From: a bacterium
GTDB taxonomy: Bacteria; Patescibacteriota; Minisyncoccia; Phycocordibacterales; UBA5272
Length of the DNA stretch: 64,000 nt
Assembly: GCA_043765155.1 (NCBI GenBank)
Contig: JAYUJP010000027.1
Coordinates: 1,349-65,348 of the forward strand
Reading direction: 5' to 3'
Made by a program: the position numbers and the translations under genes. Numbering within the stretch: position 1 is the first letter of the stretch; each line of letters opens with the position of its first letter. Below are positions 1,227-62,750 of this stretch, piece by piece. A model generated the notes under the pieces. The model worked only from the letters and a program-made list of their open reading frames with translations, did not search any database and was not told where the DNA came from.

Positions 1227-4200
1227 ATGAAAACAAATACTCCTCAAAACTCAATACATCTCAAACCATCTCTCACCCAGATATATTTTAAGGTATTTGC
1301 TTTTGTAATCATCGTCTCTACTTTATTCTCTGGAATCTCCCCCGCTTTTGCCGCCCTCCCCCAGTCCCTCTCCTACACCGCCGTCCTCCGCGACTCCACT
1401 GGCACCCCCCTCACCGGCACCAACGACTTTAAAGTGCGCTATTACGACGCTAGTACAGCAGGTATACTAATGTATGAAGAAGAATTCTTAGCAACCACTA
1501 TAAACACAGGAGGTACCTTCTTTCTCCCTCTAGGTACAGGATTACCAATAAGTGGTACCTTCTCTAGTATTAACTTCAATTCTCCTGTATTCATTACTCT
1601 AAATACTAGAATAAACTTAACTCCTACCTATGACGGAGAGATGAACCCTCGTATACCACTAAGATCAGTCCCCTACGCCCTTAACTCACAAAAGCTAGAT
1701 GGTAGAATAGTCGGAGGAGCAAATGGTGTAGTAGCCTATGATGCGTCATCCACCATTAACACTAATGGGCTGAATGCGAGCGGCACCATTAACGCTCTTG
1801 GTAATGTAAACATAGCGGGGACCACAACTGCTAGTAGTATATTTTCTACACTGATTAATTCTATTACAGGGATATTTTCTAATTTGTTTTTGACGAGTGT
1901 AGCGACTGGTACAGCTTCTGACTCAGTACTGGTAAGGGATACAGTAACAGGAGAAGTAAAGCAAGATACATTTGCTAACCTACTATCATCAGCTATTACT
2001 AATACTATATCTTTTGCGACGAGTACTAATGTGCTGACGAGTAATGTGGGAGGGGTGATCTCTACAACAGCTATTCCAGCTGGTGCATCATGTATACCAG
2101 GGGGGTCTTCTCCACTAACCAATGAATGCCAGGGTACTAGTGCCTTACAAGCTAATACAACAGGCGTACGTAATTCTGCTTTTGGAGATCTTACTCTTGC
2201 TTCGAATACAGTAGGAGTTTCAAATACGGCCTTGGGTTATTCTGCGCTCGCTGCTAATGTATCAGGAAGTAACAACGGAGCATTTGGAGGATTCTCATTA
2301 TTTAAAAATGTTAGCGGTAACGGTAACTTGGCTAATGGTATTAGCTCACTTTTTAATAATGTAAGCGGGTCACGTAATACTGGAGTTGGTAATTTTTCGC
2401 TTACTAAACTTGTAACCGGAGTAGAAAATATAGCTATTGGATTCAACGCTGGGTTTAGCCAGCTTGGAGGTGACAGCAATATAATAATAGGTTCAAATCT
2501 TGATGTCCCAGATCTTAATGGATCTAATCAGTTAAATATTGGAGACATAATATATGGTGTTGGTGTATCGACTAGCGGTGGAGGAAATATTGGTATAGGT
2601 ACAACCACACCAAACGCGCAGTTCACAACAACAGGCTCAGTGCAATTTGCGGGAATTGGAAATAGCGCCACCAACACAAATATATTAACCGTTGACGCGG
2701 CTGGTAATGTAGAGACAAGAAGCATAGTCTCTCTGCTTGCTGCTTCAGCCAGCACAACAAATATAGTTAGCTTTGCAACCTCTACTAATATATTTACCAG
2801 TAATGTTAATGGGGTAGTGAGTACTACAAGTTTGGCGGGGTTAGTAAAAAACACAAAATGGTACTCTGAAAACTTAGCTGCACCTATAATTGCACCTGTT
2901 GCCACTGGGCTAGCATCTATCGCGGTTGGAGATGGAGCGGCTGCAACAGGACGAAATATATATGCATTTGGTGATGAGGCAGGTAGAGGTAGTAATAGTT
3001 CATATTCTAACTTTTTTGGATGGAGGGCTGGTAAAAATTCTGGCAATGGTGGTACATCCGAGAATAATTTCTTTGGTATAGCGGCAGGAGAAGGAGCAAC
3101 AAATGTTGCGGGTGGAAACTTTTTTGGAAGTAGGTCTGGAGGAGACGCTATAAATGCCAGCTTCTCAAATTTCTTTGGGGAAAGTGCAGGAGAGCTTGCG
3201 ATAAGGGCCAGCTTCTCAAATTTCTTTGGACGGGCTGCAGGATCTGGAGCAATTAACGCCAACAATTCGAACTTCTTTGGACTTGAAGCTGGTCGTAACG
3301 CGTCAAATGCATATGGTTCAAATTTTTATGGAGTAGGCGCAGGATATGAAGCAATTAATGCCAACAACTCTAATTTCCTTGGTACAGGTGCTGGTAATTT
3401 TGCTACAAATGCCGCTAACTCTATATTTATAGGTACCAATGCTGGAACAAGTGACCTCGTAGATAATACTACTGGTGGTACAAGTATACTCATAGGAAGA
3501 AATACAAACACTGGAGGATTTTCAAACTCTATCGCAATAGGTGAGAGTGCGATAAATGATAGGGTTAATCAATTCTTAGTGGGACCTAATTATTCCGACT
3601 TTTCATTTAGAGGAGTTAACTATGTCTTTCCTGCTAGTCAGGGAGCGACTGGTACAACCCTTGTGAATGATGGCTCAGGAGTATTAAGCTGGGCAGCTGC
3701 TGGAGCTAGCACTTCCACAAATGCCTGGAGTCTACTTGGCAATGCTGGGACTAACCCCGCAGTTAATTTTATAGGAACAACAGATGCGCAAGACTTTATC
3801 ATAAGGACAGATAATGTGCAGACAGGTAAAATAAGTGCAGATGGCACAGTTATATCTTTTGGGATAAATGCTGGAGTCGGCACCACTAATGCACTAAGCT
3901 CAAGTTTTATTGGCGTAAATTCTGGAAGCGGAGCAATAAACGCCTTTTTTTCAAACTTCTTTGGCCAAAATGCTGGTGCTAATGTTATTAACGCTAACAG
4001 ATCAAACTTTATTGGAATAAATGCCGGCAATGGTGCATCTGCTGCTCAGTACTCTAACTTGTTTGGATTTAACGCTGGAGTTGACGCCACTAATGCTATC
4101 CATTCTAACTTTATTGGTACTGGATCTGGACAAGATGCAATCAACTCGCAACGTTCTAACTTTATAGGATTTGATGCTGGTGCAGGAGCTCCAGCTGCAT

Positions 4201-7200
4201 CCAATTCAAACTTCTTTGGATCCAGTGCTGGATTTAATGCTTTTAACGCAAGTAGTTCTAACTTTATTGGTAATAGTGCTGGATTTGCAGCATCTAACGC
4301 TAACGCCTCAAACTTCTTTGGACCTGCTGCTGGATTTGGCGCGACTGGCGCAGATAACTCAAATTTTATCGGTGCTCAATCTGGACAGGACGCAATTAAT
4401 TCAAGATTTTCTAATTTTGTAGGGTATGCAGCCGGCTCGGGAGCTTTGAACGCAGATAATTCCAACTTTTTTGGCCAAAATGCGGGGTCTAATACAAATG
4501 GTGCGGCTAGTTCAAACTTCTTTGGATCCAGTGCTGGATTTGGTGCGACTGGCGCTGCTAATTCTAACTTTTTTGGTACCAATGCTGGAAATAGTTCTGC
4601 TAATGCTGGCAACTCTAACTTCTTTGGTCTGAGTGCTGGATTTTTTGCAATTAACGCAAATAATTCCAATTTCTTTGGTGCAAATGCTGGACTTGCTGCT
4701 GCTGACGCCGCCAACTCGAACTTCTTTGGACTTGAAGCTGGTAGTTACGCATCAAATGCATATGGTTCAAATTTTTATGGAGTAAGCGCAGGATACGGAG
4801 CCGTTAATGCTAATAATTCTAACTTCTTTGGTACTGGTGCTGGTAATATTGCTACAAATGCCGCTAATTCTATATTTATAGGTACCAATGCTGGAGCGAG
4901 TGACATTGTAGATAATACTGCTGGTGGTACAAGCATATTAATAGGTAGTGGCAGTAATACTGGCGGCTTCTCAAACTCTATTGCTCTCGGCGCTAATGCA
5001 GTTAATACCAAAACAAATCAATTCTTAGTCGGACCAGATTATTCTGACTTTTCATTCCGTGGAATTAATTACACTTTTCCAAGTGTTCAAGGAAATGCCG
5101 GTGATACATTGACCAATGATGGTACGGGAGTATTAAGCTGGTCAACTTTAACCGGTGGAGGAAGGCCGATTACCGCATCAAATGGTCTTACATTATTAGG
5201 GGTAGACGTGAAGCTGGGGGGAGCGCTTAGTCAGGATACTTCTATAACACAAGGCGCTTTTGATTTAAGTTTCGCTAGAAATGGTTATGAGCTTCAAAAT
5301 TCTAATGCGGCCCCATATCTTGGTATTGGCGGAGCTATAACTGCTAATAATTTTGTTGGTGCTCGTTATACTGATGCTACTAGCGACGTTCAAAATGGTG
5401 TAATACAATTTGGCGGTCCGCGCCTTGCGAGCTTAAGAAGTTATAATAATAGTTTTGGGTATGAGACCGACTCCTCAATTTATGCTTCTCAGTCTGGTCT
5501 AAATTTACTTTTTAATGATAGTAACTCGGTAAATACAAGCGCAAATGTTGATGTGAATGGTCTGATCGTAAGTACTAGTGATGTTACAAGTAGCAATACG
5601 GGATTTCTTGGTCTTACAAATTCGGGTACAGCAAATTTTACAGTATCTGGTCCTAGCATATCTAGCGGACTATCGCTCAATAATGTCTCCGGCTCAGTGA
5701 GGCTATCTCAGCAGATTTTTGGCACAACACAGTCTATGAACATAGTCTCTGGAGGTATAGAATTTGATACACAGTCTACAAATAGATTTCGTATAGAAAA
5801 TAACGGAGACTTAAAAGCATTTGCATATGGATCTGGCAGAAATGATACAAGTGTCAGTACGCCATTTAACTTTTTATATACTGACTCAACAGGAGTCTTA
5901 TCGTCAGCACCTATTTCACTACTCGGGGGTAATGCCAGCAGCAGTATTATAGCAAGTAACGGACTTAACGCATCTGGCACAAATATAAAACTCGGTGGTG
6001 TGCTAACTCAAAATACAAATATAAACTTTGCTACAAATACTCTCACCTTTGACCAGAGTAACTTAAATTCTCGTTTTAAAATAAAAGGAGCGAGTGGATA
6101 TTCTACCCCATCAAATAGAACCCAATCTCTTTTTGAGGCTGAGCATTATGCAAATGCTGGATTCTCGATAGAAAGTTTTGAAAGTGGCCCACTCCTCGCA
6201 AATAAACATGGGACCAAATTAAATTTTACCAATAATCTATCTAACCCCTCTCTTGATCCTCTGGGCTCGTATATTAGAGGTGATAATCTTACAGGTGACT
6301 TTGAGTTTGGCACTAATGCGGGAGAGTCCGTAACATTAGGATCAGGTGGAGTTAGCGTTAATTCAAATAGTTTTATTTATCTATTTGGTAGTGATATACA
6401 ATTATACTCGCCAATAGTAAATTTTAGTCAATTTGGTAGCACTAGAGATGATAGTGCCTCTACTACACCGTCTAATTTTCTATATACAGATATTAACGGC
6501 TCTTTAAAATCTGCGCCAGTATCACTACTCGGTGGTAACTCGACTAGCTCATGGTCTCTGCTTGGCAATGCTGGCACTAATCCTGCAACTACCTTTTTAG
6601 GTACTACAGATGCACAAGACTTATCTATCAGAACTAATAATACAGAAGTTGCAAGGTTTGGGCAAAATAATAATTTTGCATTTGGTGTTGGTGCTCAGGC
6701 TGTTAACTCAGATAGCATAGCTATGGGAGCAGGAGCAGGAGCAGGAGCAACTAATGCACCATTTTCTAACTTCTTTGGGTCTGGTGCTGGATTTGGAGCT
6801 ATAAATGCAGCTAACTCTATATTTATAGGTACAAATGCTGGTGCAAATGACGCAGTAAATAATACTCTTGGTGCCGATACAAGTATACTCATAGGTAACA
6901 ATACAAACACAGGAGGATTTTCAAATTCTATCGCACTCGGTGAGGGAGCGGTAAACACATCTGCAAATCAGCTTTACATTAGGAACGCGATTACTAATTT
7001 TAATCTAGCTGGAGTAAATTACAGTTTTCCAACTGTGCAAGGCGCTCTTAATACTACTCTGAGTAACGATGGAAATGGAAACTTAACCTGGGTTGCACCC
7101 GGAGCAGGATCTATCACAGCATCAAATGGACTTAACGCTGTCGGAGTAGATGTAAGACTGGGTGGTGCTTTAAACACCCCAACTACAATAAACGCAACTG

Positions 7201-9785
7201 GAACAAACGACTTAACCATTTCCGGTACGTCGTATTCAAATAGTACGGGACTGTTTTCGGTCAACAGATTTGCAGGCACCTCAAACGCTGGAGCTGCAAT
7301 ACAAGCCAATTCTACCGCTGGTGCTGGACTTAATATGCTACAAAATGTAGGAGGTAGATTTGATGCTGTTAGTTTTGCTAATGGAGCGGGTACTAATTAT
7401 GGAACCCTGAACACAGCTAGCTTGGGACAGTCTGATACCTTTGCTACAAATGTGGGATCTAGAAGTGTGGCATCTATGAGTATAGGTGGTGGTAGCGTAG
7501 GCCAGTTACGCGGAGCTGAGAATGTTTCTAGTATCACAAATGGATCCGCTGGTAGAGCTTTTGGATCTTTGAATGAAGTAAATTTACAAAATGGTACAAG
7601 TGTAAATGAAGCATATGGTGTATTTACTGCTCTGAGTAAGCCAAGTGGTGCAACAGTAGGTAGATACTCAGGCTTTATTATGGAGGATAATAATACTGGT
7701 GTCGCTAATAGAGCAGGTCTTGCCTTGGTCTCACTTTCTAGTGTAAATTATACTGGCGAATGGGGTATATATAATGCTCTGAATAGAAATAATGCAATTA
7801 ATGGATCACTGATGGTGGGATCTACCACAGCACCAACAGAAAGACTAGACGTAGCGGGTAATCTCAGACTAAGAGGTGCCTTTATGCCGGGCAATCAGGC
7901 TGGTGGAGTGGGGTCACTACTCATATCTCAGGGTCCTAACGTTGCGCCAATATGGTCCAGTACTTCTACACTCGGATTATTGTCTAGTGCAAATAATGGC
8001 CTAACAGTAAACCCGGCAGGCAATGCGCAGCTTGGTGGTGGTCTATTACAAGACACAACTATTATCAATAATAACTTTGCGCTAGATATTGGTACAGGTA
8101 TAAATGGTCTTAAGGTAGCAGCTAATGGGCAAGTGGGTATTGGAAATAATATTGGAGCTATTCCAGGTGCAACTCTCTTAGTAAAAGATACAGTGGCGGG
8201 ATTTGCCTCACTCAATGTAGTCGGAGGGACTTCTGGAGGAGGAGCAATTACTAGATTTATAAATGACACTGGAGCGACTTACTTAACTGGTCTATCAGGT
8301 TCAAATAATAGTGCGCTTGGACTAGGTAATTATATTATACGCGATCAAAATGCAGGATTAAACAGATTGGTAGTAGCCTCAAATGGTAATGTAGGAATAG
8401 GAGATTTTACAAATGTGAATCCAGTAGAAAAGCTATCTGTAGCTGGAAATATAAACATATCTTCTGGTAGTGCTTATATGCTTAATGGTGTGAATGTGTT
8501 AAGATCACAAACCGCTTTGAATAATATTTATGCTGGTCCAGCTGGAAATCTAACTGGTACAGGTCAATACAATACCGCTATAGGATATGATTCATTTAAT
8601 GTAAACACTACTGGACAGCAAAACACTGCGACCGGTTTTCATTCTATGAATGGTAACACCACAGGTTCATTTAACACTGCAAATGGTCTAAATTCACTGT
8701 ATTTCAACTCTACAGGGAGTAACAATAACGCATTTGGATATAATGCTCTCTTTAGAACAACTTCATCTGGAAATAATGCATTCGGTAATGCTGCTTTGCA
8801 AGAAAATGTAAGTGGGATAGATAATGTGGCTATGGGTAATTCAACATTATCATTTTCATTAGGAAATACTAACTCAGCTTTTGGTTCGGCAGCCGGCGCA
8901 CTTTTAGTAAACGGTAATAATAATACCTTCAGTGGCTACAAAGCTGGTTTTGCTCAAACAGCAGGTAGCAACAACTTGGTGCTTGGCGCAAATACGGATC
9001 TTGCAAACCTTACAGGTTCTAATCAGTTAAATATTGCAAATATTATTTTTGGTACAGGACTCACTGGTTCAGTTAGCGCACCGCTAGGTAATATAGGCCT
9101 CGGCACCACCACCCCCGCCGAGCGCCTTCAAGTCCTCGGCGACATCCGTATAGGTACAAGTGGTGTTAACGGCTGTCTCCAGAACTTTGCAGGTACGGCT
9201 ATAGCTGGTGTATGTAGTTCAGATGAAAACCTAAAGATAAATATACAAGATCTAGCTACTAGCACAATGGACAAATTCTCAAAATTAAGATTCGTCTCAT
9301 ATAACTGGAACAACACAGCAGGTGAATTATACAAAAAGGATACTACTGCCACCAATACGGGTATATTAGCGCAACAAGTAGAAGGTATATTCCCAGAACT
9401 AGTAACTACAGATAATAAAGGATACAAGGTAGTAGATATCTCAACTCTGTTTATGTATAGTATGCAAGTAACCAGAGACCTAATAAATAGATTAGACGCA
9501 GAAGTCATTAATCTTAAGAATATAGTAGCGAGCTCCCTCACCGCTGAGCGTATATATGTAAAGAGGGTAGAGGCGGAGGAGGTAATAACACAAAAGTTAT
9601 GTGTTAAAAGCGCGTGCGTGACCGAAACAGAATTTTTAGAAATTATAAATAATAGAAACAACACAAGCGCTAACAATAATATAAATACAAATACAAATAC
9701 AAATACAAATACAACAACAGATACTATGAGCACAAGTACTCAAGATGTACCAGCAGCTACTAGTACAGAAATAGTAATACCTTAA
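1227..9785 (+). CDS. Giant (2852 aa) secreted glycine-rich repeat fibre protein with a C-terminal intramolecular-chaperone (Peptidase S74 / endosialidase-chaperone-like) domain
   Basis: N-terminal signal peptide. About 30 tandem ~20-aa units of type SNFFGxxAGxxAxNAxx. Tail-fibre-like motifs WSLLGNAGTNPAVNFIGTTDAQD and NIGIGTTTPxxxLxVxG. C-terminal CSSDENLKINIQDL...LRFVSYNWNN...GILAQQVEGIFPELV...GYKVVDISTLFMYSMQ matches the S74 auto-cleaving chaperone (Ser-x4-Lys). Ends in an NTNTNT tail. Confidence 0.8.
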   Translation: MKTNTPQNSIHLKPSLTQIYFKVFAFVIIVSTLFSGISPAFAALPQSLSYTAVLRDSTGTPLTGTNDFKVRYYDASTAGILMYEEEFLATTINTGGTFFLPLGTGLPISGTFSSINFNSPVFITLNTRINLTPTYDGEMNPRIPLRSVPYALNSQKLDGRIVGGANGVVAYDASSTINTNGLNASGTINALGNVNIAGTTTASSIFSTLINSITGIFSNLFLTSVATGTASDSVLVRDTVTGEVKQDTFANLLSSAITNTISFATSTNVLTSNVGGVISTTAIPAGASCIPGGSSPLTNECQGTSALQANTTGVRNSAFGDLTLASNTVGVSNTALGYSALAANVSGSNNGAFGGFSLFKNVSGNGNLANGISSLFNNVSGSRNTGVGNFSLTKLVTGVENIAIGFNAGFSQLGGDSNIIIGSNLDVPDLNGSNQLNIGDIIYGVGVSTSGGGNIGIGTTTPNAQFTTTGSVQFAGIGNSATNTNILTVDAAGNVETRSIVSLLAASASTTNIVSFATSTNIFTSNVNGVVSTTSLAGLVKNTKWYSENLAAPIIAPVATGLASIAVGDGAAATGRNIYAFGDEAGRGSNSSYSNFFGWRAGKNSGNGGTSENNFFGIAAGEGATNVAGGNFFGSRSGGDAINASFSNFFGESAGELAIRASFSNFFGRAAGSGAINANNSNFFGLEAGRNASNAYGSNFYGVGAGYEAINANNSNFLGTGAGNFATNAANSIFIGTNAGTSDLVDNTTGGTSILIGRNTNTGGFSNSIAIGESAINDRVNQFLVGPNYSDFSFRGVNYVFPASQGATGTTLVNDGSGVLSWAAAGASTSTNAWSLLGNAGTNPAVNFIGTTDAQDFIIRTDNVQTGKISADGTVISFGINAGVGTTNALSSSFIGVNSGSGAINAFFSNFFGQNAGANVINANRSNFIGINAGNGASAAQYSNLFGFNAGVDATNAIHSNFIGTGSGQDAINSQRSNFIGFDAGAGAPAASNSNFFGSSAGFNAFNASSSNFIGNSAGFAASNANASNFFGPAAGFGATGADNSNFIGAQSGQDAINSRFSNFVGYAAGSGALNADNSNFFGQNAGSNTNGAASSNFFGSSAGFGATGAANSNFFGTNAGNSSANAGNSNFFGLSAGFFAINANNSNFFGANAGLAAADAANSNFFGLEAGSYASNAYGSNFYGVSAGYGAVNANNSNFFGTGAGNIATNAANSIFIGTNAGASDIVDNTAGGTSILIGSGSNTGGFSNSIALGANAVNTKTNQFLVGPDYSDFSFRGINYTFPSVQGNAGDTLTNDGTGVLSWSTLTGGGRPITASNGLTLLGVDVKLGGALSQDTSITQGAFDLSFARNGYELQNSNAAPYLGIGGAITANNFVGARYTDATSDVQNGVIQFGGPRLASLRSYNNSFGYETDSSIYASQSGLNLLFNDSNSVNTSANVDVNGLIVSTSDVTSSNTGFLGLTNSGTANFTVSGPSISSGLSLNNVSGSVRLSQQIFGTTQSMNIVSGGIEFDTQSTNRFRIENNGDLKAFAYGSGRNDTSVSTPFNFLYTDSTGVLSSAPISLLGGNASSSIIASNGLNASGTNIKLGGVLTQNTNINFATNTLTFDQSNLNSRFKIKGASGYSTPSNRTQSLFEAEHYANAGFSIESFESGPLLANKHGTKLNFTNNLSNPSLDPLGSYIRGDNLTGDFEFGTNAGESVTLGSGGVSVNSNSFIYLFGSDIQLYSPIVNFSQFGSTRDDSASTTPSNFLYTDINGSLKSAPVSLLGGNSTSSWSLLGNAGTNPATTFLGTTDAQDLSIRTNNTEVARFGQNNNFAFGVGAQAVNSDSIAMGAGAGAGATNAPFSNFFGSGAGFGAINAANSIFIGTNAGANDAVNNTLGADTSILIGNNTNTGGFSNSIALGEGAVNTSANQLYIRNAITNFNLAGVNYSFPTVQGALNTTLSNDGNGNLTWVAPGAGSITASNGLNAVGVDVRLGGALNTPTTINATGTNDLTISGTSYSNSTGLFSVNRFAGTSNAGAAIQANSTAGAGLNMLQNVGGRFDAVSFANGAGTNYGTLNTASLGQSDTFATNVGSRSVASMSIGGGSVGQLRGAENVSSITNGSAGRAFGSLNEVNLQNGTSVNEAYGVFTALSKPSGATVGRYSGFIMEDNNTGVANRAGLALVSLSSVNYTGEWGIYNALNRNNAINGSLMVGSTTAPTERLDVAGNLRLRGAFMPGNQAGGVGSLLISQGPNVAPIWSSTSTLGLLSSANNGLTVNPAGNAQLGGGLLQDTTIINNNFALDIGTGINGLKVAANGQVGIGNNIGAIPGATLLVKDTVAGFASLNVVGGTSGGGAITRFINDTGATYLTGLSGSNNSALGLGNYIIRDQNAGLNRLVVASNGNVGIGDFTNVNPVEKLSVAGNINISSGSAYMLNGVNVLRSQTALNNIYAGPAGNLTGTGQYNTAIGYDSFNVNTTGQQNTATGFHSMNGNTTGSFNTANGLNSLYFNSTGSNNNAFGYNALFRTTSSGNNAFGNAALQENVSGIDNVAMGNSTLSFSLGNTNSAFGSAAGALLVNGNNNTFSGYKAGFAQTAGSNNLVLGANTDLANLTGSNQLNIANIIFGTGLTGSVSAPLGNIGLGTTTPAERLQVLGDIRIGTSGVNGCLQNFAGTAIAGVCSSDENLKINIQDLATSTMDKFSKLRFVSYNWNNTAGELYKKDTTATNTGILAQQVEGIFPELVTTDNKGYKVVDISTLFMYSMQVTRDLINRLDAEVINLKNIVASSLTAERIYVKRVEAEEVITQKLCVKSACVTETEFLEIINNRNNTSANNNINTNTNTNTNTTTDTMSTSTQDVPAATSTEIVIP

Positions 9786-12777: not shown

Positions 12778-12928
12778 TAGTCTGGGATTATTGCTTTTAC
12801 ATTTTAAATATAAAAAATATGAGTAATAAGTATGTCACAAATAGTATTGCATTCTGTTATATATGCTATAATATAATTATACAAATAAATAAAAAATACC
12901 CAGTAGATAATTCTACTAAATTAAAAAT

Positions 12929-13741
12929 ATGCAAGATTTAAAGTTAAACAAAAATTTAGAAAATCTTTACAAAGTTAGTTCAATACTCGTTATTATATTA
13001 TCAATAGTTGGATTACTATACGCTGTTAATATTTTTAGAGAAGGTAGGCTCATAGGAGCTAATGCTTCTAATACAATATCATTATCAGGTACTGGCAAGG
13101 TCACAGCTAAGCCGGACACAGCAACAATAACTTTTTCTGTGCGTGAACAGACTAAGCAGGCAAAGAAAACTGAATATGCTGATGAGGAAGATACCAAAGA
13201 GGTAAAAGAAAGTAAGGACAGAATTACAAAAAAGATAAATGTAGCATTAACAGATTTAAGCAAAATAGTAGACAAAAAAGATATAACAACCGAGACCTAC
13301 AATTCATACCCAAGATACTTTTATTATACAAATGGAGCGTCTGGCTTAATTGAAGGTTATGATGTATCACAAACAGTAAGTGTAAAAGTTATTGACATAA
13401 AAAACACTTCTAAAATTCTGGATATAATAAATAAAGCCGGTATAAGTGAGGTGTCAGGTCCAGATTACTACATTGAGAAAGACGAAGTTTTTAAAGATAA
13501 AGCAAGAGAAGATGCTATAAGTGAAGCAAAAAGAAAAGCTAATATTTTGGCCAAGCAATTGGGGGTCAGCGTACTGCGTATAGTTAGCTTTACAGAAGAT
13601 TCTAGTTATGCGCCAGTATTATACAGTGTGGAAAAATCAGACATCACAGGGAATGCCCAAGCTGCGTCAACAGAGCCATATTTACCAGAGGGAGAAAATG
13701 AAATCACTTCAAGCGTTACTATAACTTTTGAAATAAAATAA
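12929..13741 (+). CDS. SIMPL-domain (DUF541/BP26-like) periplasmic protein
   Basis: N-terminal TM/signal, then ISLSGTGKVTAKPDTATITFSV typical of SIMPL/BP26. Tandem paralog of the next gene. Confidence 0.65.
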   Translation: MQDLKLNKNLENLYKVSSILVIILSIVGLLYAVNIFREGRLIGANASNTISLSGTGKVTAKPDTATITFSVREQTKQAKKTEYADEEDTKEVKESKDRITKKINVALTDLSKIVDKKDITTETYNSYPRYFYYTNGASGLIEGYDVSQTVSVKVIDIKNTSKILDIINKAGISEVSGPDYYIEKDEVFKDKAREDAISEAKRKANILAKQLGVSVLRIVSFTEDSSYAPVLYSVEKSDITGNAQAASTEPYLPEGENEITSSVTITFEIK

Positions 13742-17273: not shown

Positions 17274-17303
17274 AAAAGGCGCCCGCGTAGCGGGCGCCTT
17301 TTA
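17274..17303. terminator. Bidirectional rho-independent terminator between convergent genes
   Basis: AAAAGGCGCCCGC-GTA-GCGGGCGCCTTTT, a perfect GC-rich hairpin flanked by an A-run and a T-run. Confidence 0.7.
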
Positions 17304-22051: not shown

Positions 22052-22178
22052 CATAAATTATTGATGCTTCTCTGTTTGTTTTACAGTTGACTTTTGTGTG
22101 TACAAAATATATACTGTGTATATACAAATTATAAGTATTAAATTAACACTTAATAAATGATTCTACTTAATCAAATAT

Positions 22179-35431: not shown

Positions 35432-35506
35432 AAAATGTGCTATAATTATATTAATTAAAATTTAAAAGTATTAAGTAGATAATTCTACAAAATCAAAATC
35501 AAAAAT

Positions 35507-41999: not shown

Positions 42000-42434
42000 T
42001 TACTTCCACACACCTAGCCATATTCCGATATACTCTACTACGCCGTATAAGAATATTATATAAAATATTATGCCGGCTATTAGTGCTAGCGCTAGCTTGT
42101 TTATGATTTCATTTCTACGCTTTTTGACATCGTCTAGGGTGCATACCCCAGCTCTTTTCATATAAAAGTAAAAAGCTACAAGCAATGCTATTAGTCCCAA
42201 AGCGCGGAATGCCCACTTATAAGTCCCGTAAAATATATTAGCAATATCACCGGCAATGCTAACACTAACTAACCCGAGAGAAAGTAGTATTATTGGTGAC
42301 AGGCAGCATAGCGAGGCTATAACTGCAGGTACGCTTGCTATCTTAAAAGCTTCTTTTAATTTTACAGATATTGGCCTAGTATCTTTAATTTGATCAGCTC
42401 TTATTATATTATATTTTGGTTTTGTTTTTTGCAT
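42000..42434 (-). CDS. Small membrane protein with an intramembrane CC motif, last gene of the msrAB operon
   Basis: SLCCLSPIILL in the first TM. Four TM helices. Function unknown, possibly thiol/redox- or metal-related. Confidence 0.35.
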   Translation of the reverse strand: MQKTKPKYNIIRADQIKDTRPISVKLKEAFKIASVPAVIASLCCLSPIILLSLGLVSVSIAGDIANIFYGTYKWAFRALGLIALLVAFYFYMKRAGVCTLDDVKKRRNEIINKLALALIAGIIFYIIFLYGVVEYIGIWLGVWK

Positions 42435-42476
42435 ACTTTTGATTAAGTGTAATCACCACTTAAGTATTTTTTTGTA

Positions 42477-43724
42477 TTATTTTAATAAGCTAGTATACTC
42501 ACCATAAGCCCCCTTCTCCATATCAGTTAAAGGTATAAATTTCATCGCAGCTCCGTTCATACAATATCTTTTGCCTCCTCTATCACTTGGTCCATCTTCA
42601 AATACATGACCTAGATGTGAGTCGGCTATCTTACTTCTAACCTCTGTTCTGGTTGAGAATATTCCATCATCAACGTGAAATGTCACAGCGTATTCAGATA
42701 TAGGCTTTACAAAGCTTGGCCAGCCTGTGCCGCTATTATATTTATCTTTTGATAAAAATAGTGGCTCACCAGAAACTATGTCTACGTATAGGCCCACCTC
42801 TTTGTTATCATTATAATTACCATTTGAAAATGGTTTTTCGGTACCACTATCTTGAGTTACTTTTAGGCTAATAGCGCTCAAAGTTTTTAATTTTTCATTT
42901 TTAATTTGCGGAGCAAAATTCTCCCAGCTTTTTACATTTTTGTTTTCGTTCAAATTGCTTGATACATTCTCGACTCTATTTACTTTTGTAGTAGATCCAT
43001 CTTGCCAGTGTAATTTGATAAAGTCATTACGCCCCGAGCCGTCACGATACAGCTCATATCTGACTGGATTCTTATCCTTATAATCTTGATGATACTCCTC
43101 GGCAGGATAAAAATTATTATAGGGTAATATTTCGGTTACTATTTTTTTAGTTAAAAATTTTGGATTATTATCTATATAATCTTGCGTTTCTAGTTTTGAT
43201 TTTTCTATTGCCAGCTTTTGCTCATCATTTGTATAGTATATAGCAGTAGTATATTGATAACCCTGATCTGCAAATTGCCCATACGCATCGGTCGGGTCTA
43301 TATGACGCCAGTATTTTGCAAGTAGATTATTAAGAGTGGTACTAGCACTATTATAATATACAAGTACCGCCTCACGCGCCCTCACATCACCACTACCAAC
43401 TTCAGCGTAGCTTGGATTTTCTTTTGCGCTATCAGCATATCCAGATATAGCAGTTACTACGCCTTCAAGATGATTAAATTCTGACTCGGTGCACCAGAAA
43501 CACCCACCAGCAAAAACTATTTTGCTATAATTTTTCTCTAATTCTTCTTGTGTTAAGTTTTCTTTGTTCATACTTTTGTTTTGTTTAAGATTTATAGCTT
43601 GCTCTAGTGTTAGATTTTTGGATGTATATTTTTGATATATTATAGTTGATAAATAGATGGCTATTACTAGTATTATACTATATATTATTGGAGTTGGTAT
43701 TTTTAGATTTAAGATTTTTTGCAT
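42477..43724 (-). CDS. msrAB: Membrane-anchored bifunctional peptide-methionine (S)/(R)-sulfoxide reductase MsrA-MsrB
   Basis: N-terminal TM anchor. MsrA GCFWCTE. MsrB HLGHVFEDGP...RYCMN. Confidence 0.85.
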   Translation of the reverse strand: MQKILNLKIPTPIIYSIILVIAIYLSTIIYQKYTSKNLTLEQAINLKQNKSMNKENLTQEELEKNYSKIVFAGGCFWCTESEFNHLEGVVTAISGYADSAKENPSYAEVGSGDVRAREAVLVYYNSASTTLNNLLAKYWRHIDPTDAYGQFADQGYQYTTAIYYTNDEQKLAIEKSKLETQDYIDNNPKFLTKKIVTEILPYNNFYPAEEYHQDYKDKNPVRYELYRDGSGRNDFIKLHWQDGSTTKVNRVENVSSNLNENKNVKSWENFAPQIKNEKLKTLSAISLKVTQDSGTEKPFSNGNYNDNKEVGLYVDIVSGEPLFLSKDKYNSGTGWPSFVKPISEYAVTFHVDDGIFSTRTEVRSKIADSHLGHVFEDGPSDRGGKRYCMNGAAMKFIPLTDMEKGAYGEYTSLLK

Positions 43725-46741: not shown

Positions 46742-46778
46742 CAATAGCGCCGGCGTAGCCGGCGCTATTGTTTTATTT
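46742..46778 (+). terminator. Rho-independent terminator of the GCGCCGGC-GTA-GCCGGCGC family
   Basis: CAATAGCGCCGGCGTAGCCGGCGCTATTGTTTTATTT. Confidence 0.7.
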
Positions 46779-47955: not shown

Positions 47956-48144
47956 ATGAAAAACAAACAAGTAATTAAAAATATAGACTACAAGGACATA
48001 GATACTTTGAAAAAAGCTATCAATCCAAATGCACGTATATTAGGTAGACGCAAGACTAGTCTTTCTGCTAATCAGCAAAAGACTCTTGCAGCAGCTATCA
48101 AGCGCGCTAGATTCATGGGTCTACTTCCATATATCGCAAGATAA
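47956..48144 (+). CDS. rpsR: 30S ribosomal protein S18
   Basis: IDYKDIDTLKKAI...RILGRRKT..S...QKTLAAAIKRARFMGLLPY. Confidence 0.8.
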   Translation: MKNKQVIKNIDYKDIDTLKKAINPNARILGRRKTSLSANQQKTLAAAIKRARFMGLLPYIAR

Positions 48145-48145
48145 C

Positions 48146-48176
48146 AAAAAAGCGCCGGCGTAGCCGGCGCTTTTTT
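48146..48176 (+). terminator. Rho-independent terminator of the GCGCCGGC-GTA-GCCGGCGC family
   Basis: AAAAAGCGCCGGCGTAGCCGGCGCTTTTTT. Confidence 0.75.
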
Positions 48177-48283
48177 GTTATCTGTGATATTTTGTGTTAC
48201 AATGTAAAAGTTAAAAATAATCTAAACAACTAAAAATTTTAAATAAAATAATACCCAGTAGGTAATTCTACTGAATCAAATAT

Positions 48284-56897: not shown

Positions 56898-57542
56898 ATG
56901 AAAAATAAAGAAATAAATGAGATAGATATAGAAGATTTGGAAAGTCCAGAAGTAAATAGTGGAAGTTCAGCTGACGCTAATAGTAATAGCGATAGTGCAG
57001 AATCAGAATTTGTAGAGCTGGGTGATGATGGTGAGGAGTTGTCAGGAAAAGATGTGACAAAGAAATTAAGAGAGAGAATTAAAAAATTAGAAAGTGAAAA
57101 GCAGGACTATTTAAATAGTTGGCAGCGCGCTCTGGCTGATTATAAAAATAGGGAGATGCAGATTGAGAAAGAAAAGAAGGAGTGGGGGGGTTATGCTGTC
57201 AAAAGATTCACAGAAGAATTATTGGTAGTCATGGACACTTATGATGCTGCGAAAAGCAATAAGGCAGCCTGGGAGAAAGTTGATCAGAACTGGAGAGTAG
57301 GTATAGAATATATATTTATGACTTTTGAGAGTAAGCTAGCCGAGCAAGGTTTTGAAAAATTTGGAAAAGTTGGGGAGACCTATAATCCAGAACTTCATGA
57401 GGCATTAGCGACAGAAACTGCAACAGAAAATACAACAGCAAGTGAGAGCCAAAAATCAGACACAATTTCTCAAATAATAATGAGCGGTTATAATCATAAA
57501 GGTAAGCTATTCCGCGCTGCCAAGGTCAAGGTGTGGGGGTAA
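56898..57542 (+). CDS. grpE: Nucleotide exchange factor GrpE
   Basis: Coiled-coil N-terminus with ...QRALADYKNRE... (GrpE AE(F/Y)xNxRKR-like). C-terminal beta-domain. Confidence 0.75.
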   Translation: MKNKEINEIDIEDLESPEVNSGSSADANSNSDSAESEFVELGDDGEELSGKDVTKKLRERIKKLESEKQDYLNSWQRALADYKNREMQIEKEKKEWGGYAVKRFTEELLVVMDTYDAAKSNKAAWEKVDQNWRVGIEYIFMTFESKLAEQGFEKFGKVGETYNPELHEALATETATENTTASESQKSDTISQIIMSGYNHKGKLFRAAKVKVWG

Positions 57543-57638
57543 TCAAGAGGCAGAAAAAGCCTAAGCCCTACTTGCATTAAAAAATTATTTGTGGTACAAA
57601 TAATCTAGATGGTAAGATAAAAAAAACTTGATAAAATT

Positions 57639-57941
57639 ATGCAAATAACAATACAAAAAAAGTTTTTAATATTGTACGAAATAGCAGAAAATGTATATGC
57701 TATGTTTTTGGTTATAGTTAACTTTGTATTTGAATTTGCTAGTCAAAGTGTAGAAGTGGTAAAAAGAGAGTTTAATAATTTTGTAGAAAAAACACATAAT
57801 TTTATACGCGCGCTATTTGGATTTAATATTTATAAGCTAAAATCTATAAAAATAGAAACGAAAACAAATAGTAAAAATATTAGCTTTAAAAATAATGACT
57901 TTTTGATATATTCTAACCTGTTAGCCCCACCAGTCTTATAA
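57639..57941 (+). CDS. Hypothetical protein (possibly spurious)
   Basis: ORF track only, between grpE and dnaK. Confidence 0.2.
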   Translation: MQITIQKKFLILYEIAENVYAMFLVIVNFVFEFASQSVEVVKREFNNFVEKTHNFIRALFGFNIYKLKSIKIETKTNSKNISFKNNDFLIYSNLLAPPVL

Positions 57942-58112
57942 AATATAAAATTTATTAAAACACAATTTTTATATTCTGCGGAACCCGGCTAACGCCTCAA
58001 ACAGTCCTCAAAAATAAAAATAGTTTTTGTTAAATTTTACCTGTAACACTTTTAAAAATATAAAACTAACAACCCAGTAGGTGATTCTACTGAGTCAAAC
58101 AAAAACAAATAT

Positions 58113-60011
58113 ATGGCGAAAATAATAGGAATAGACTTGGGTACTACTAACTCAGCGGTTGCGATTATGGAGGGAGGTGTACCAAAAATTATCGAAAATC
58201 TAGAAGGTGCCCGCACTACACCATCAGTAGTGAGCGTATCTAAAAATGGAGACAGGACAGTAGGCGCTGTCGCAAAAAGACAGGCTGTGATGAATCCAAA
58301 AGATACAATATATGGAGTAAAGAGATATATGGGTCATGACTTTACAGACAAAGAAGTTGCTGATGACATTGGTAAGGTCTCATACGGAGTTAAGAAAAGC
58401 GAGACTGGCGGAGTGCTGGTAAATATCGGAGGCAAAGATATGCGACCTGAAGAAATATCAGCAATGATATTACAAAAGATAAAAGCTGATGTCGAAGCTA
58501 AGACTGGTGAGAAAATAACTGAGGCGGTTATCACTGTGCCTGCTTATTTTAATGACGCGCAAAGGCAAGCAACCAAGGACGCAGGAGCAATTGCTGGCCT
58601 AGACGTAAAACGTATTATCAATGAGCCGACAGCGGCAGCGCTCGCTTACGGTTTTGATAAAAAGACTAATGAAAAATTAGCGGTGTATGACTTTGGAGGG
58701 GGAACATTTGATATATCTATACTCGAAGTCGGTGATGGTGTTGTCGAGGTAAAGTCAACAGGAGGTGACTCACATCTTGGTGGACGTGATATTGATAATG
58801 AGATAGTTAGATATATCGCCGGAGAATTTAAAAAGGAGACTGGCCTAGATCTATCAAGTGACTCACTAGCTATGCAAAGACTAGACGAAGCCGCAGAAAA
58901 AGCTAAGCATGAATTATCAACCCAAGTTGAGAGTAAAATATTTTTACCTTATATCTCAGTCGGAGCTGAGGGTCCAAAGAATTTGGATGTTACGCTAACT
59001 CGCGCGCAACTAGAAAATATTGCGAGATCATTTGTCGAGAGGTCAATCAAGATAACAGAGCAGACCCTCAAAGATAGTGGATTTGCAAAGTCAGATATAT
59101 CAGAAATAATAATGGTAGGAGGACAGACAAGAATGCCGATGATAGTCGAAGCTGTCAAAAACTTATTTGGCAAGGAGCCAAATAGATCTGTGAACCCTGA
59201 TGAGGTGGTAGCGCTTGGCGCCGCTGTGCAGGCTGGTGTACTTCAAGGTGATGTAAAAGATCTGCTGCTACTAGACGTTATACCATTATCACTTGGTATT
59301 GAGACTATGGGCGGAGTACTGACTCACTTGGTCGAAAAGAATACAACAATACCAACACAAAGGTCACAGGTGTTCTCAACCGCTGCTGATAATCAGACTA
59401 GCGTCGAGATACATATAGCCCAAGGTGAGAGACCAATGGCAGCTGATAATAAGTCACTGGGCAGATTTATCCTAGATGGTATACCGCCATCACCAAGAGG
59501 AGTACCACAAGTTGAGGTGACTTTTGACGTGGACGCTAATGGTATACTTAATGTAAAAGCAAAGGATAAGACTAGCGGCAAAGAGCAATCTATAAGAATA
59601 GAAGCAAGCTCAGGACTAAGCAAAGAAGAGATAGCTAAAATGCAAGCCGATGCGGAGGCTAATGCCGGTGAAGATGCTAAGAAAAAGGAACTCGCCGAAG
59701 TTAAAAATCACGCAGACCAGACTATTGCTACCGCCGAAAAGTCACTCACTGATGCAGGTGATAAAGTTACCCCTGATCTTAAAAAAGAAATAATGGATAA
59801 GGTAGCTGATGTAAAATCTGCAAAAGATTCTAATGACTTAGAAAAATTAACCAAAGCAAATAGTGAGCTAAATACTGCGATGTATAAAATCGGTGAAGCT
59901 ATGAAAACTGGAAATGACGCAGCAGCTAGTCAAGAAGCGGGCCAAGAAAATAACCAAGACTCTTCTGAGCAAAACGAAAACAAAACAGAAGATGCTCCAG
60001 AAAATAAATAA
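58113..60011 (+). CDS. dnaK: Molecular chaperone DnaK (Hsp70)
   Basis: [18 protein letters not shown], and full-length Hsp70 architecture. Confidence 0.95.
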
Positions 60012-60050
60012 CTATTAATTAAAAACTAAATTAATAAAAAGTATAAAATT

Positions 60051-62750
60051 ATGAATCCTTCATTTAATAACTTTACCACTAAATCAAAAGAAGCAATCAG
60101 AAGGGCGCATGAGCTAGCTGTTGAGGCTGGGCAGTCAAATGTTAGTCCTGTGCATATGATGGGGGCGTTACTTTCTGACGAAGAGAGTATTGTATACTCT
60201 ATACTTGAAAAGTTACAAATAGATACCATACTATTTTCAGATACAATATCAGAGGCGATACATGTGTCAGGTAGTGGTAGTACTATGGCGCCAAGTTATC
60301 AGATGTATCTGACGGCTGAGCTTGCTGGCGCCCTAGAAAAATGCGGACAAGTGGCGCAAATGCTACATGATGAATTCATAGCGCCTGAGCATATATTTAT
60401 ATCATTACTCGACGTAGCGGGTCAGCTACGTGAGATTATTAATAGGTTCAGAATTGACCGTGATCAGGTTACCCGCGTATTATCACAAGCCAGGACTCAG
60501 GTCTATACTCAAAATGGAGCTGCTAAGAAAAACAAAACCTTGCTCAAGTATACTAGGAGCTTTACTCAGATGGCGCGCGAGGACAAGCTTGATCCAGTTA
60601 TTGGCCGTGACACCGAGATAATGCGCTTGATGCAGATAATCTCAAGACGTAGCAAAAATAATCCGATACTAATCGGAGAGGCTGGTGTGGGTAAGACTGC
60701 GGTAGTGGAGGGGTTAGCTTCACGCATAGCCAAAGGGGATGTACCTGACTCACTCAAAGATAAGGAGTTAGTCTCACTCGACCTGGGTATGCTTATAGCG
60801 GGTACAAAGTATAGAGGAGAATTTGAAGAGAGGCTTAAGAACATTATGAAAGAGATAACCGAGAGTCAAGGTAAGATAATACTATTCATAGATGAGCTGC
60901 ATACCATAGTTGGAGCTGGCGCTGCTGAGGGGGCTGCTGATGCGGCTAATCTTCTCAAGCCTGCGCTCGCTCGTGGTGAGGTACGCGTAATAGGGGCGAC
61001 GACATTAAAAGAATATCAAAAGCATATAGAAAAAGATCCGGCATTATCAAGAAGATTCCAGCCGGTATATGTAGAGGAGCCGTCAACTGATGACGCTATA
61101 ACTATATTACGCGGCCTCAAAGAAAAATATGAAGTCTTTCATGGGGTGCGTATTACTGACGAGGCGATACTTGCAAGCGTTAACCTATCAAGTAGGTATA
61201 TAACTTCAAGATATTTACCAGACAAAGCTGTAGACCTTATTGATGAGGCTGCTTCATCACTACGTATATCACTTGAAAATAAACCTCAAGAATTAGATAT
61301 AGCTCATAGGAAAATTCAAAGATTAGAAATAGAAAGATCTGCTATGGATACAGAGCTAATATCTAGCGTAGCCACATCAGACATTAATATCAAAAACAAT
61401 CTTACCAAAAGATTAACAGAAATAGATATAGAAATAGCAGATATAAAAGATAGTATACGAGACCTAGAAGTTAGATACAATAATGAAAAGGACTTGGTTG
61501 CCAAAATGCGCGACTATAAGAAAACTCTTGAGTCGCTTCGCCTAGAAGCTGACAATGCGCAGTTAAGGTCAGACCTAGCAAAAGTGGCTGAGATCAGATA
61601 TGTGAATATACCAAAGCTAGAATTAGACTTGGCTGAAGTTAACACAAGACTTGAAAAACTTCAGAAAAATAGAAGAGTGTTAAAAGAAGAAATAACTGAA
61701 GAGGACATAGCCAAAGTTGTATCGGGCTGGACAGGTATACCATTGCATAAAATGATGGCTGAGGAAAAAGAAAAGTTAGCAAGTATGGAGTCTTACTTAA
61801 AAGAGAGGGTAATAGGTCAAGATGACGCTATCAAAAGAATCTCGGACGCAGTACGTAGGTCGAGAATTGGAATCTCAGATCCAAATAGACCAATAGGATC
61901 ATTCTTATTTTTAGGCCCAACAGGTGTGGGTAAGACTGAGCTGACCAAGGCGCTAGCTGAGTTTATGTTTAACGATGAGAAGGCTCTGATTAAAATAGAC
62001 ATGAGCGAGTATATGGAAAAGCATAGTAGTAGTAAGCTTATAGGGTCGCCAGCTGGATACGTAGGTTATGATGAGAGTGGTATGCTGACTGAGGCAGTGC
62101 GTCACAGGCCATACGCGGTGATACTGCTCGACGAAGTCGAGAAGGCGCATCCGGACGTGTTTAACCTTATGCTCCAAGTCTTGGACGAGGGTAAGCTAAC
62201 CGATAATAAGGGGCGCGTTGCTAACTTTAAAAATACTATTATTATAATGACTAGTAATATAGGTAGTAATCATATACAAAAGATGCAGAGCTATGGATTC
62301 TCATCGGGACTACCCGGCGATGAGTATGCAAATGTAAAAGAAAAAGTTCAGGACTCGCTCAAAGAATTCTTTCGTCCAGAATTTCTAAATAGGCTAGATG
62401 ATATTATTATTTTTGATATCTTATCAAAACAAAATATAGAAAAGATAGTAAGATTATCACTGATAGAAATAGAAAAGAGATTAGTAGAAAAAGATATAAA
62501 TCTAAACGTGAGTGATGAGGCAGTTACGCATATAGCCGAAAAGTCTTATGATCCAAAATATGGAGCAAGGCCAATACGCAGATATTTGCAGAGCAATATA
62601 CTTAACAAAGTCGCGAGCATGATGATAGACAAAGTCTTTGACAAAGGTGGAATGGTATCTGTAGATATTAAAAAGGGGGAATTGATAGTAGAGAGTAAAA
62701 AGAAAGTAAGATTAAGCCTAGACAAAGCATTACTTAATTCTTCTTTATAA
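60051..62750 (+). CDS. clpB: ATP-dependent chaperone ClpB
   Basis: Clp N-domain. Two AAA modules ([18 protein letters not shown]). Long coiled-coil middle domain. Confidence 0.9.

Follow-up and report, generated by a model that had tools for sequence, protein, structure and literature searches.

What kind of signal is a short, palindrome-containing motif that recurs just upstream of the start codons of several genes in a single stretch of bacterial DNA? The stretch in question, referred to here as the window, comprises 64,000 nucleotides (nt) of the Patescibacteria contig JAYUJP010000027.1 (positions 1,349 to 65,348), a 67-kb metagenome contig (ENA ERZ27314326). A first-pass annotation of it had reported four instances of the motif, upstream of the genes for a SIMPL protein, a membrane protein, Ndk and DnaK, with a stress regulon under a dimeric repressor among the proposed explanations. 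The four sites exist, and the motif is real and non-random: its 15-nt core (AGTAGRTRATTCTAC) is present without mismatches at all four and, when up to two mismatches are allowed, six matches are found in the window as compared to 0.96 expected, a number attained in none of 100 shuffles. Its conservation far exceeds chance, and the element is not a heat-shock operator. The explanation that we favor, tentatively and at less than even confidence, is that of a miniature repeat which has been inserted at new sites and whose RNA would act where translation starts, probably through docking of the 30S ribosomal subunit, a mechanism that we infer.

In full, the element is 28 nt long (consensus ACCCAGTAGGTGATTCTACTGAATCAAA) and is numbered here as A1 C2 C3 C4 A5 G6 T7 A8 G9 G10 T11 G12 A13 T14 T15 C16 T17 A18 C19 T20 G21 A22 A23 T24 C25 A26 A27 A28; as RNA it reads 5'-A CCC AGUAGG UGAU UCUACU G AAUCAAA-3'. 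The window contains six copies rather than four, the two that had been overlooked (22148-22175 and 42465-42438) being degenerate and having been found by searching with the 3' half of the element. Copy 1 (ACCCAGTAGATAATTCTACTAAATTAAA; 12898-12925, + strand; 40.6 bits with a covariance model) stops 3 nt short of the SIMPL/DUF541 start codon (ATG at 12929); its stem arms (12902-12907 and 12912-12917) enclose a TAAT loop and are followed by a tail (12919-12925), and the predicted hairpin has an energy of -6.0 kcal/mol (z -4.35). Copy 2 (ACTTAATAAATGATTCTACTTAATCAAA; 22148-22175, + strand; 37.6 bits), one of the degenerate pair, precedes, with a spacer of 3 nt, a relB-type antitoxin gene (ATG at 22179) that has a yafQ/parE-type toxin gene downstream, and copy 3 (ATTAAGTAGATAATTCTACAAAATCAAA; 35470-35497, + strand; 35.8 bits) is separated by 9 nt from a gene for a small membrane protein (ATG at 35507). 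The diverged copy 4 (ACTTAAGTGGTGATTACACTTAATCAAA; 42438-42465, - strand; 15.4 bits, E 0.45) occupies the 42-nt spacer between msrAB and a MerT-like gene (ATG 42434). Copies 5 (ACCCAGTAGGTAATTCTACTGAATCAAA; 48253-48280, + strand; 48.7 bits) and 6 (ACCCAGTAGGTGATTCTACTGAGTCAAA; 58072-58099, + strand; 46.4 bits) precede ndk (ATG at 48284) by 3 nt and dnaK (ATG at 58113) by 13 nt, respectively, the dnaK copy being the one in the window that is closest to the phylum-wide consensus. The earlier identification of the SIMPL, NDK and HSP70 genes was upheld, whereas the 'membrane protein' gives a weak DUF4383 match only. The covariance model was built from 24 variants, five of which are window copies; the five window sites with E<1e-5 all belong to its own training set, and the sixth, copy 4, is independent of it (E=0.45). 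Beyond these six copies the model retrieved nothing convincing in the 64 kb.

All six window copies are sense-oriented, and they end 3, 3, 9, 3, 3 and 13 nt before the ATG of genes that lack a Shine-Dalgarno (SD) sequence. Random placement of 28 nt in the six spacers gives P ~7e-6 for this arrangement, or ~1e-7 when orientation is taken into account, and even in the long spacers (151-401 nt, rich in A-tracts) the copies still lie 3-13 nt from the ATG. The distance of 10-25 nt given in the first-pass annotation takes the palindrome alone as the motif; the element, however, includes the conserved tail AATCAAA, and as a whole it therefore ends 3-13 nt before the ATG.

A wider motif search, the check which that annotation had suggested, produced ~60 further instances, and these are biased to positions just before start codons. 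Scanning 185,579 species genomes with GTAGRTRATTCTACNNANTYAAA returned 67 loci, 17 of which are Patescibacteria metagenome-assembled genomes (Nomurabacteria, Kaiserbacteria and Paceibacterota, with one labelled Nanoarchaeota). Although the pattern did not force it, all 17 copies have the 5' extension aCCCA or differ from it at one base (CCAA, CTCA). Element-bearing metagenome-assembled genomes include JAYTBU01 (GFS_14393), JACQGC01, JAHFNO01, JAGOSH01 and JBAZSZ01. Approximately 45 matches in Lachnospiraceae proved to be coding sequence (VVGNSTELKN) and irrelevant, and a few others were scattered by chance. A metagenome scan with the stem left free (CCCNNNNGGTGATTCNNNNGAATCAAA) returned 56 loci, ~52 of them genuine, on contigs of 30-60% GC. 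The closest relatives of the window Ndk, and of the LigA of related loci, are labelled Candidatus Nomurabacteria or Paceibacterota. As judged from these sequence matches, the element is a member of a dispersed 28-nt family found only in Patescibacteria contigs. The covariance model detected only one extra copy in 548 kb around the copies in other genomes; few copies per genome are therefore usual, and the window, with six copies in 64 kb, represents an expansion. A phage origin was considered and rejected, as a scan of viral contigs gave two chance coding matches only. A CRISPR repeat was likewise discarded: the 28-nt length and the hairpin-plus-tail layout are alike, but the copies are solitary and kilobases apart, not arranged in a tandem array with spacers. 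Rfam 15 has no family at the element (in the window at the gathering threshold, at four perfect-copy loci at E<=1 and at two more loci at E<=5), and neither Rfam nor the literature searched yielded a description of it.

The element shows a strong sense-strand bias, and its 3' end lies ~4 nt upstream of SD-less start codons. Among 66 non-redundant copies, to which the context counts refer, an ATG open reading frame (ORF) begins -1 to +13 nt after A28 in 33, with a mode of 4 nt (12 of 33), and 32 copies are co-oriented with both flanking genes as compared to eight that are antisense to both (p=1.8e-4), a sense bias of 4:1. At 18 copies the upstream ORF terminates on the TAG (positions 7-9) or the TGA (positions 11-13) of the element. 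The genes that follow it elsewhere include rpsG, rplN (after rpsQ), rpmA, rpmE, rpmI (after infC), atpD (after atpG) and dnaN, as well as ftsQ-like (downstream of serS), ABC ATPase (downstream of its adaptor gene) and glutaredoxin genes; further flanking sites are purF-like and mnmA genes and the rpoB/rpoC and secY/adk junctions. The genes downstream are housekeeping genes and not a stress regulon, and the regulon which the presence of dnaK had suggested is not borne out in other genomes.

These contexts also bear on the DNA operator for a dimeric repressor of a heat-shock or stress regulon, which had been the leading idea and which we now consider very improbable. Its appeal is that the element contains inverted repeats, precedes dnaK-clpB and, like the controlling inverted repeat of chaperone expression (CIRCE), is situated between promoter and start codon. 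CIRCE, the HrcA operator and mRNA element, is found at dnaK/groE operons and is active as DNA and RNA; the present element resembles it further in length (27 nt for CIRCE) and in its high conservation, which for CIRCE extends across phyla. Its sequence is nevertheless unrelated, its gene set extends beyond chaperones to ribosomal protein genes, atpD, dnaN, ftsQ-like genes, ndk and others, and no hrcA is among the genes that were called in part of the window. Moreover, many copies lie within operons or across the stop codon of the gene upstream; the flanks, though conserved, are not symmetrical; at 42465-42438 the arms have been replaced with pairing kept; variants that pair only as G-U are common, A18G for example pairing only as U-G in RNA; and a palindromic operator has no need of an orientation bias relative to genes. 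The earlier statement that CIRCE and the HspR-associated inverted repeat (HAIR) are absent was borne out: the CIRCE consensus TTAGCACTC-N9-GAGTGCTAA has no match in the window with up to three mismatches, and HAIR (CTTGAGT-N7-ACTCAAG) has matches at chance level, none of them upstream of grpE or dnaK and none credible. The chaperone cluster itself (56898-62750, + strand) consists of grpE, a 100-aa ORF to which no function was assigned, dnaK and clpB, and the element is present at dnaK only.

The variants that pair as G-U point to RNA as the form that matters. For the consensus, RNAfold predicts a hairpin, termed A, in which C4-G10 pair with U15-G21 around a UGAU loop (6-7 bp, -8.2 kcal/mol), followed by the conserved single-stranded, A-rich tail; the four window copies that fold in this manner have z scores of -1.7 to -4.4 relative to shuffles. 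A second predicted hairpin, B, which is mutually exclusive with A, pairs U11-C16 with G21-A26 around a UACU loop (-5.7 kcal/mol), and its pairs are affected by double changes at 12-25 (copy at 12898) and 16-21 (42465, L121:3081 and L063:7063; L numbers denote loci of this study). Copy 2 has lost hairpin A, hairpin B (TGATTC/TAATCA) alone being left. Copy 4 carries eight substitutions, and its stem has been re-registered to TTAAGTG/CACTTAA (7 bp), with a perfect hairpin B via a C16A/G21T double change. The commonest variant, A18G, occurs in 21 of the ~52 metagenome copies; together with C19U, A5G and U6/G19, it retains hairpin A by G-U pairs that are possible only in RNA of this strand. Positions A22, U24 and A26-28 and, in the loop, U11, A13 and U14 are unpaired and near-invariant across genomes of 30-60% GC. 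Since the search patterns fixed many columns and the covariation statistics are not significant for either hairpin, we regard predicted structure A as likely and B as possible. That a hairpin-containing motif stands directly upstream of SD-less start codons, as originally described, agrees with both the folding and the start-codon contexts. An H-type pseudoknot of hairpins A and B was rejected because its loops 2 and 3 would be of zero length, so that the geometry fails, and a K-turn or box C/D motif (GUGAU...CUGA) was rejected as the C-stem it needs is absent. On the opposite strand, at 48253-48276 and 58070-58097, the element and its A-rich upstream DNA together score as an intrinsic terminator (hairpin, U-run), which could therefore keep antisense transcripts from running into the upstream region.

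The fixed distance to the ATG and the moderate stability of the hairpin (-5 to -8 kcal/mol) might also suggest a promoter element or an RNA thermometer, either of which we find scarcely credible. The hairpin ends at least 11 nt upstream of the AUG, the tail and the AUG are unpaired and no SD is covered; unlike the ROSE and fourU thermometers, the element would thus occlude neither SD nor start codon with its predicted hairpin, and the thermometer put forward in the first-pass annotation finds no footing here. As for promoters, a reading of the sequence reveals no resemblance to the sigma-70, sigma-54, sigma-32 or extracytoplasmic function (ECF) sigma consensus at a workable spacing; sigma-54, sigma-H and sigma-32 readings were tried and rejected on the ground of spacing. 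Upstream of the element, -10 boxes show no enrichment at a fixed distance, the element also stands directly before terminators, and its operon-internal sites (msrAB/MerT-like, rpsQ/rplN, atpG/atpD, infC/rpmI) exclude a promoter-only role. Plausible promoters do lie upstream of the motif at three sites, as had been reported, in the form of extended -10 boxes on the + strand at 12864-12872 (TGCTATAAT, a consensus match only), 35438-35446 (TGCTATAAT) and 48195-48203 (TGTTACAAT), upstream of copies 1, 3 and 5, respectively, the last of these preceded by a terminator (48139-48183). The first box implies a likely transcription start ~19 nt upstream of copy 1, which would therefore be within the 5' untranslated region (UTR). 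No clear extended -10 box was found upstream of dnaK. Processing to leaderless mRNA in a leaderless-dominated organism was also considered and rejected: the window shows no -10 peak 6 nt before the ATG, so leaderless dominance is not claimed.

How, then, might such an RNA act beside a start codon? GGAG or GAGG is present at -20 to -4 in only one of 51 window genes, and in 6% and 14% of genes at low-GC and high-GC loci, respectively. These SD-poor genomes fit the report that the CCUCCU anti-SD is retained in 48% of Parcubacteria and is lacking in 52% (Tsurumaki et al. 2022, PMC9297842). The spacer between element and ATG is itself too short for an SD sequence. The leaders in the window are A/T-rich and commonly end ...AAA(A/T)(A/G)T before the ATG, and many genes open with ATGCAA or ATGAAA. 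Element positions 5-16 (AGUAGGUGAUUC) are complementary to the 3' tail of 16S rRNA (GGAUCACCUCCU), and positions 5-19 match the complement of Escherichia coli 16S 1526-1540 at 13 of 15 positions. The predicted duplex of the consensus with GGAUCACCUCCUUA, the canonical tail, which may not be that of the host, has an energy of -14.1 kcal/mol as compared to -4.5±2.2 kcal/mol for composition-matched shuffles, 0-2 of 500 of which reach this value, and it is stronger than hairpin A. Where the genome scan left purine positions free, G10 and G12 are found in 16 of 17 copies (opposite C1535 and C1533), even though G10 weakens hairpin A. In the window, whose lineage has decayed loops as compared to the consensus GGUGAUUC, the duplex energies range from -14.1 (dnaK) and -11.4 (MerT-like) down to -2.4 kcal/mol (SIMPL). 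The 16S 3'-end signature was not found in ~1.09 Mb of loci, and Rfam at the gathering threshold revealed no rRNA gene in the window and 44 loci.

On the explanation that we favor, the element would act as RNA at translation initiation, its positions 5-16 pairing with the 16S 3' tail in such a way that the 30S subunit is docked or tethered beside the start codon, and this docking would be of consequence to organisms in which SD pairing is otherwise little used. The mutually exclusive hairpins A and B would set exposure and spacing: with AGUAGG on the anti-SD while hairpin B folds, A27 and A28 plus the ~4 nt that follow would give an effective spacer of ~6 nt. Phage T4 gene 38 has a split ribosome-binding site, in which a hairpin between the SD-like part and the AUG restores normal spacing, and the hairpin of the element could do likewise. 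Copies that are found by terminators, in antisense or in ORFs would be by-products of the spread of the element. A translational enhancer and a site for an RNA-binding protein, both already among the first suggestions, are still the leading ideas.

The likeness to a Shine-Dalgarno or 'extended SD' sequence consists in the complementarity to the (canonical) 16S tail and in the position upstream of starts that have no other ribosome-binding site. It differs from an SD in that its core lies ~16-22 nt from the AUG instead of 5-10 nt, is mostly base-paired instead of single-stranded and also occurs away from starts, and in that all 28 nt are conserved as a block, non-complementary parts included. 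The STAB-SD of Bacillus cryIIIA is an SD-like sequence in the 5' UTR that is not placed for initiation and is thought to bind 30S and to protect the mRNA; being a plain GGAGG-type sequence near the 5' end, it has neither a conserved hairpin and tail nor a fixed distance to the AUG. A bolder version of ribosome docking, which strikes us as doubtful, would see in the element a portable module, a 28-nt bacterial counterpart of an internal ribosome entry site ('mini-IRES') that pairs with ~12 nt of the 16S tail while two hairpins gate exposure and set spacing. It would spread by insertion and be retained at landing sites a few nt ahead of start codons, in a phylum in which classical SD initiation is being abandoned or is already gone; in lineages without an anti-SD, possibly including the organism of the window, the pairing part would decay while hairpin and tail persist.

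Several observations weigh against ribosome docking. With regard to the pairing itself, three to four of the six window copies have lost most of their 16S complementarity (-2.4 to -7.7 kcal/mol) while keeping their position. The tail used in the calculation is the canonical one, from which the 16S 3' end of the host may differ, many Parcubacteria being without an anti-SD, and T15 is invariant although C15 would pair better with G1530. With regard to geometry, G10 lies ~22 nt upstream of the AUG (18 nt plus the mode-4 spacer), as compared to the usual 5-10 nt for an SD, and the SD-like core ends at least 16 nt from the AUG and is, in the minimum free energy structure, largely paired inside hairpin A; the rescue of spacing by hairpin B belongs to the model only, and the covariation statistics lend neither hairpin support. 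With regard to context, about one quarter of the copies are not at a start codon. The eight antisense copies (~12%) lie among real genes on both sides (e.g., dnaE/thrS, argS/ileS, leuS), and ~7 copies stand directly before or inside intrinsic terminators with no ORF (L083, L091, L095, L107, L122, L121 and L034), that of L122 following a tRNA gene. Three to four copies are translated through inside ORFs (trxB-like, ligA, methyltransferase) in the only stop-free frame (PVGDSTESK), and a deviant copy (ACCCATAGGGTGATTCTGTTGAATCAAA) is located in an RNase P RNA gene (L121:7146-7631, - strand), within a 121-nt AT-rich insertion at P15-P17. This RNase P RNA is of class A and scores 102.6 bits, just over threshold, and the insertion replaces P16/P17. 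Finally, most SD-less genes, operon-internal ones included, do without the element, and close relatives have the same promoter layout at ndk without it.

The same contexts raise the question as to whether the element is maintained by its hosts or merely spreads among them, and both processes are evident. At orthologous junctions, namely serS/ftsQ-like (seven contigs), infC/rpmI (three), efflux adaptor/ABC ATPase (three) and ppa (two), the element is 93-100% identical, whereas identity in the flanking 150 nt of coding DNA is 67-85%, and neither the length nor the sequence of the spacer to the ATG is constant. Variants of the element track the relatedness of the flanks (U19, for instance, is common to L099 and L113). 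The element has therefore been inherited vertically under purifying selection at these junctions. Conversely, in five relatives whose Ndk is 88-92% identical to that of the window, the terminator, promoter, leader and ATGCATCC layout is kept and the element is absent at ndk; ~50 kb of syntenic DNA of these relatives contains no copies. In ligA, an exact in-frame insertion of +27 nt (+9 codons) is found in two lineages and is absent from 38 homologues, one of them 83% identical; the empty site reads GAAGAAT followed directly by TAAAAATT. The absence at ndk in relatives and the ligA insertion indicate that the element has been copied to new places, including the inside of ORFs, and that some copies were then kept. 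In one relative, the DNA downstream of ndk (L140:7848-13342) encodes a resolvase, an N6/N4 methyltransferase, a helicase and a PycTM and nucleotide-cyclase pair; this looks like a Pycsar-like defence island and is absent from the window.

Such spread would also be expected of a selfish palindromic repeat without host function, akin to the repetitive extragenic palindromic (REP) sequences. In this case the GTAG head and the palindrome TGATTC-N4-GAATCA would be mobilised in trans as a hairpin of single-stranded DNA, for example by a RAYT/HUH transposase, and would survive only where harmless, the start-codon bias reflecting a target preference for A-tracts and compact intergenic spacers. We deem this unlikely, in spite of a considerable list of features that it would explain: the patchy distribution, with six copies per 64 kb here, none in ~50 kb of syntenic relatives, none at their ndk and only one extra copy in 548 kb around those in other genomes; the exact in-frame ligA insertion, and the confinement of all in-ORF copies to a single stop-free frame; the 18 upstream ORFs that end on the TAG or TGA of the element; the copy within the insertion in the RNase P RNA gene and the eight antisense copies; the C-G to A-T or T-A double changes at pair 16-21 of hairpin B; and the presence of a second family of identical hairpins in the same window. 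As in REP and SMAG-type repeats (RAYT-mobilised), the element is a short (20-40 nt) imperfect palindrome, as seen in hairpins A and B, with GTAG on its 5' side; it is dispersed, mostly extragenic, often a few nt from stop codons and folded in mRNA, with sharp differences in copy number among close relatives. GTAG (positions 6-9) directly precedes palindrome B (TGATTC-TACT-GAATCA) as it does in REP; since the same bases serve as the 5' arm of hairpin A, the more stable of the two, the match to the REP-type GT(A/G)G may be coincidental.

What argues for selection at the level of the host is the vertical inheritance at orthologous sites, where conservation far exceeds that of flanking coding DNA. 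A purely selfish repeat is also at odds with the 4:1 orientation bias and the distance of ~4 nt to starts, which is held to 3-13 nt even in the 151-401-nt spacers rich in A-tracts. REP sequences normally are species-specific, whereas this element is near-identical across very divergent genomes of 30-60% GC; a genome contains tens to hundreds of them, often arranged in inverted pairs, whereas the element, in the window and the 548 kb surveyed, is found in one or a few copies per genome, as singletons, and inverted REPIN/BIME pairs were not seen. A tblastn search with E. coli RayT, a weak test, found no RAYT homologue below E=2 in ~0.7 Mb of Patescibacteria DNA, which amounts to a small fraction of each genome. 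Rickettsia palindromic elements offer a parallel in that a palindromic repeat is tolerated in frame in protein genes and in RNA genes; those elements are, however, ~100-150 bp long, Rickettsia-specific and without association with start codons.

The element might also be a 'punctuation' or stability signal in the transcript, recognised by a conserved RNA-binding protein or RNase; this factor would read the hairpin and the AAUCAAA tail and would either block or activate the adjacent start, or cut and protect RNA at cistron boundaries. We consider this possible, if on balance improbable. It would cover the 5' UTR and intercistronic copies as well as those after stop codons, before terminators and after the tRNA gene (L122), and the near-invariant unpaired positions across 30-60% GC suggest a sequence-specific partner. 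A -10-like box ends 7-8 nt before the element in L047, L050, L063 and at 58072 in the window, which would put the hairpin 3 nt from the RNA 5' end, the typical geometry of a stabiliser. The tight spacing of 4±2 nt to the AUG is not, however, something that stabilisation or processing alone would require; no candidate protein co-occurs in the fetched loci, and the antisense and in-ORF copies are left unexplained.

A candidate for such a factor is the KH-domain GTPase Era, possibly with YbeY. Era recognises GAUCA and the base of helix 45 (h45) of 16S rRNA (PMC10582724), and the element, which reads hairpin-G-AAUCA, resembles this site in its order of hairpin, purine and AUCA and in the upper stem GUAGG/(U)CUGC, with its U-G pair at the same place. 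The loop is UGAU as opposed to the universal GGAA, the tail is one A longer than GAUCA, and the local-alignment score with h45 (18, against a shuffle mean of 19.4) is not significant. Mimicry of helix 45 is attractive by eye but scores like the shuffles, and we keep it as a sub-hypothesis only.

A number of further observations were made in the vicinity of the copies. A second dispersed hairpin family (GCGCCGGC-GTA-GCCGGCGC) has four members in the window, all on the + strand (17279-17297, 46747-46765, 48152-48170 and 62793-62811), three of them identical and one with a compensatory C/G swap (GCGCCCGC-GTA-GCGGGCGC), against a chance expectation of zero. Every copy lies just past the 3' end of a gene, and that at 48152 is called as a strong terminator, with A-run and T-run flanks. 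Directly 5' of the element in L084 (- strand), L117 (1380-1476) and L130 (- strand) is a conserved region of ~90 nt, with different genes downstream; it comprises a GC stem (GCCGCGC/GCGCGGC), a covarying hairpin (GUAAAUC-AGU-AGAUUUAC versus GCGAAUU-AGU-AAAUUCGC) and then CUUGGUCGCUUUCGCA. This region has no Rfam match and may be an unannotated structured RNA. In L057, ~10 tandem GTTAGAT units lie ~60-140 nt upstream of an antisense copy, between two ABC-transporter genes. In the window, msrAB (42477-43724, - strand), a fused msrA-msrB gene, is followed by the MerT-like membrane protein gene, possibly that of a redox partner (42000-43724), and an ORF of 2852 aa (1227-9785, + strand) has a GC content of ~41%, above that of the rest of the window.

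The explanations considered here partly overlap, and the element may be a small insertional repeat that has been co-opted as an expression signal. The single-stranded tail, the second overlapping hairpin, the complementarity to the 16S tail, the phylum-wide distribution and the insertion-like behaviour had all been overlooked in the first-pass annotation. Were the element REP-like instead, it would still be unusual as a mini-element that sits in frame in ligA and trxB and in an RNase P RNA gene, and we found no description of a REP-like family in Patescibacteria in the literature searched. How translation starts in Patescibacteria (the candidate phyla radiation) is an open question: their ribosomes are reduced, they make almost no use of SD sequences, and in about half of the Parcubacteria the anti-SD is unrecognisable. 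A selectively maintained element, placed 4 nt before the starts of core genes and complementary to the 16S tail, offers a concrete, testable handle on translation initiation in these organisms.

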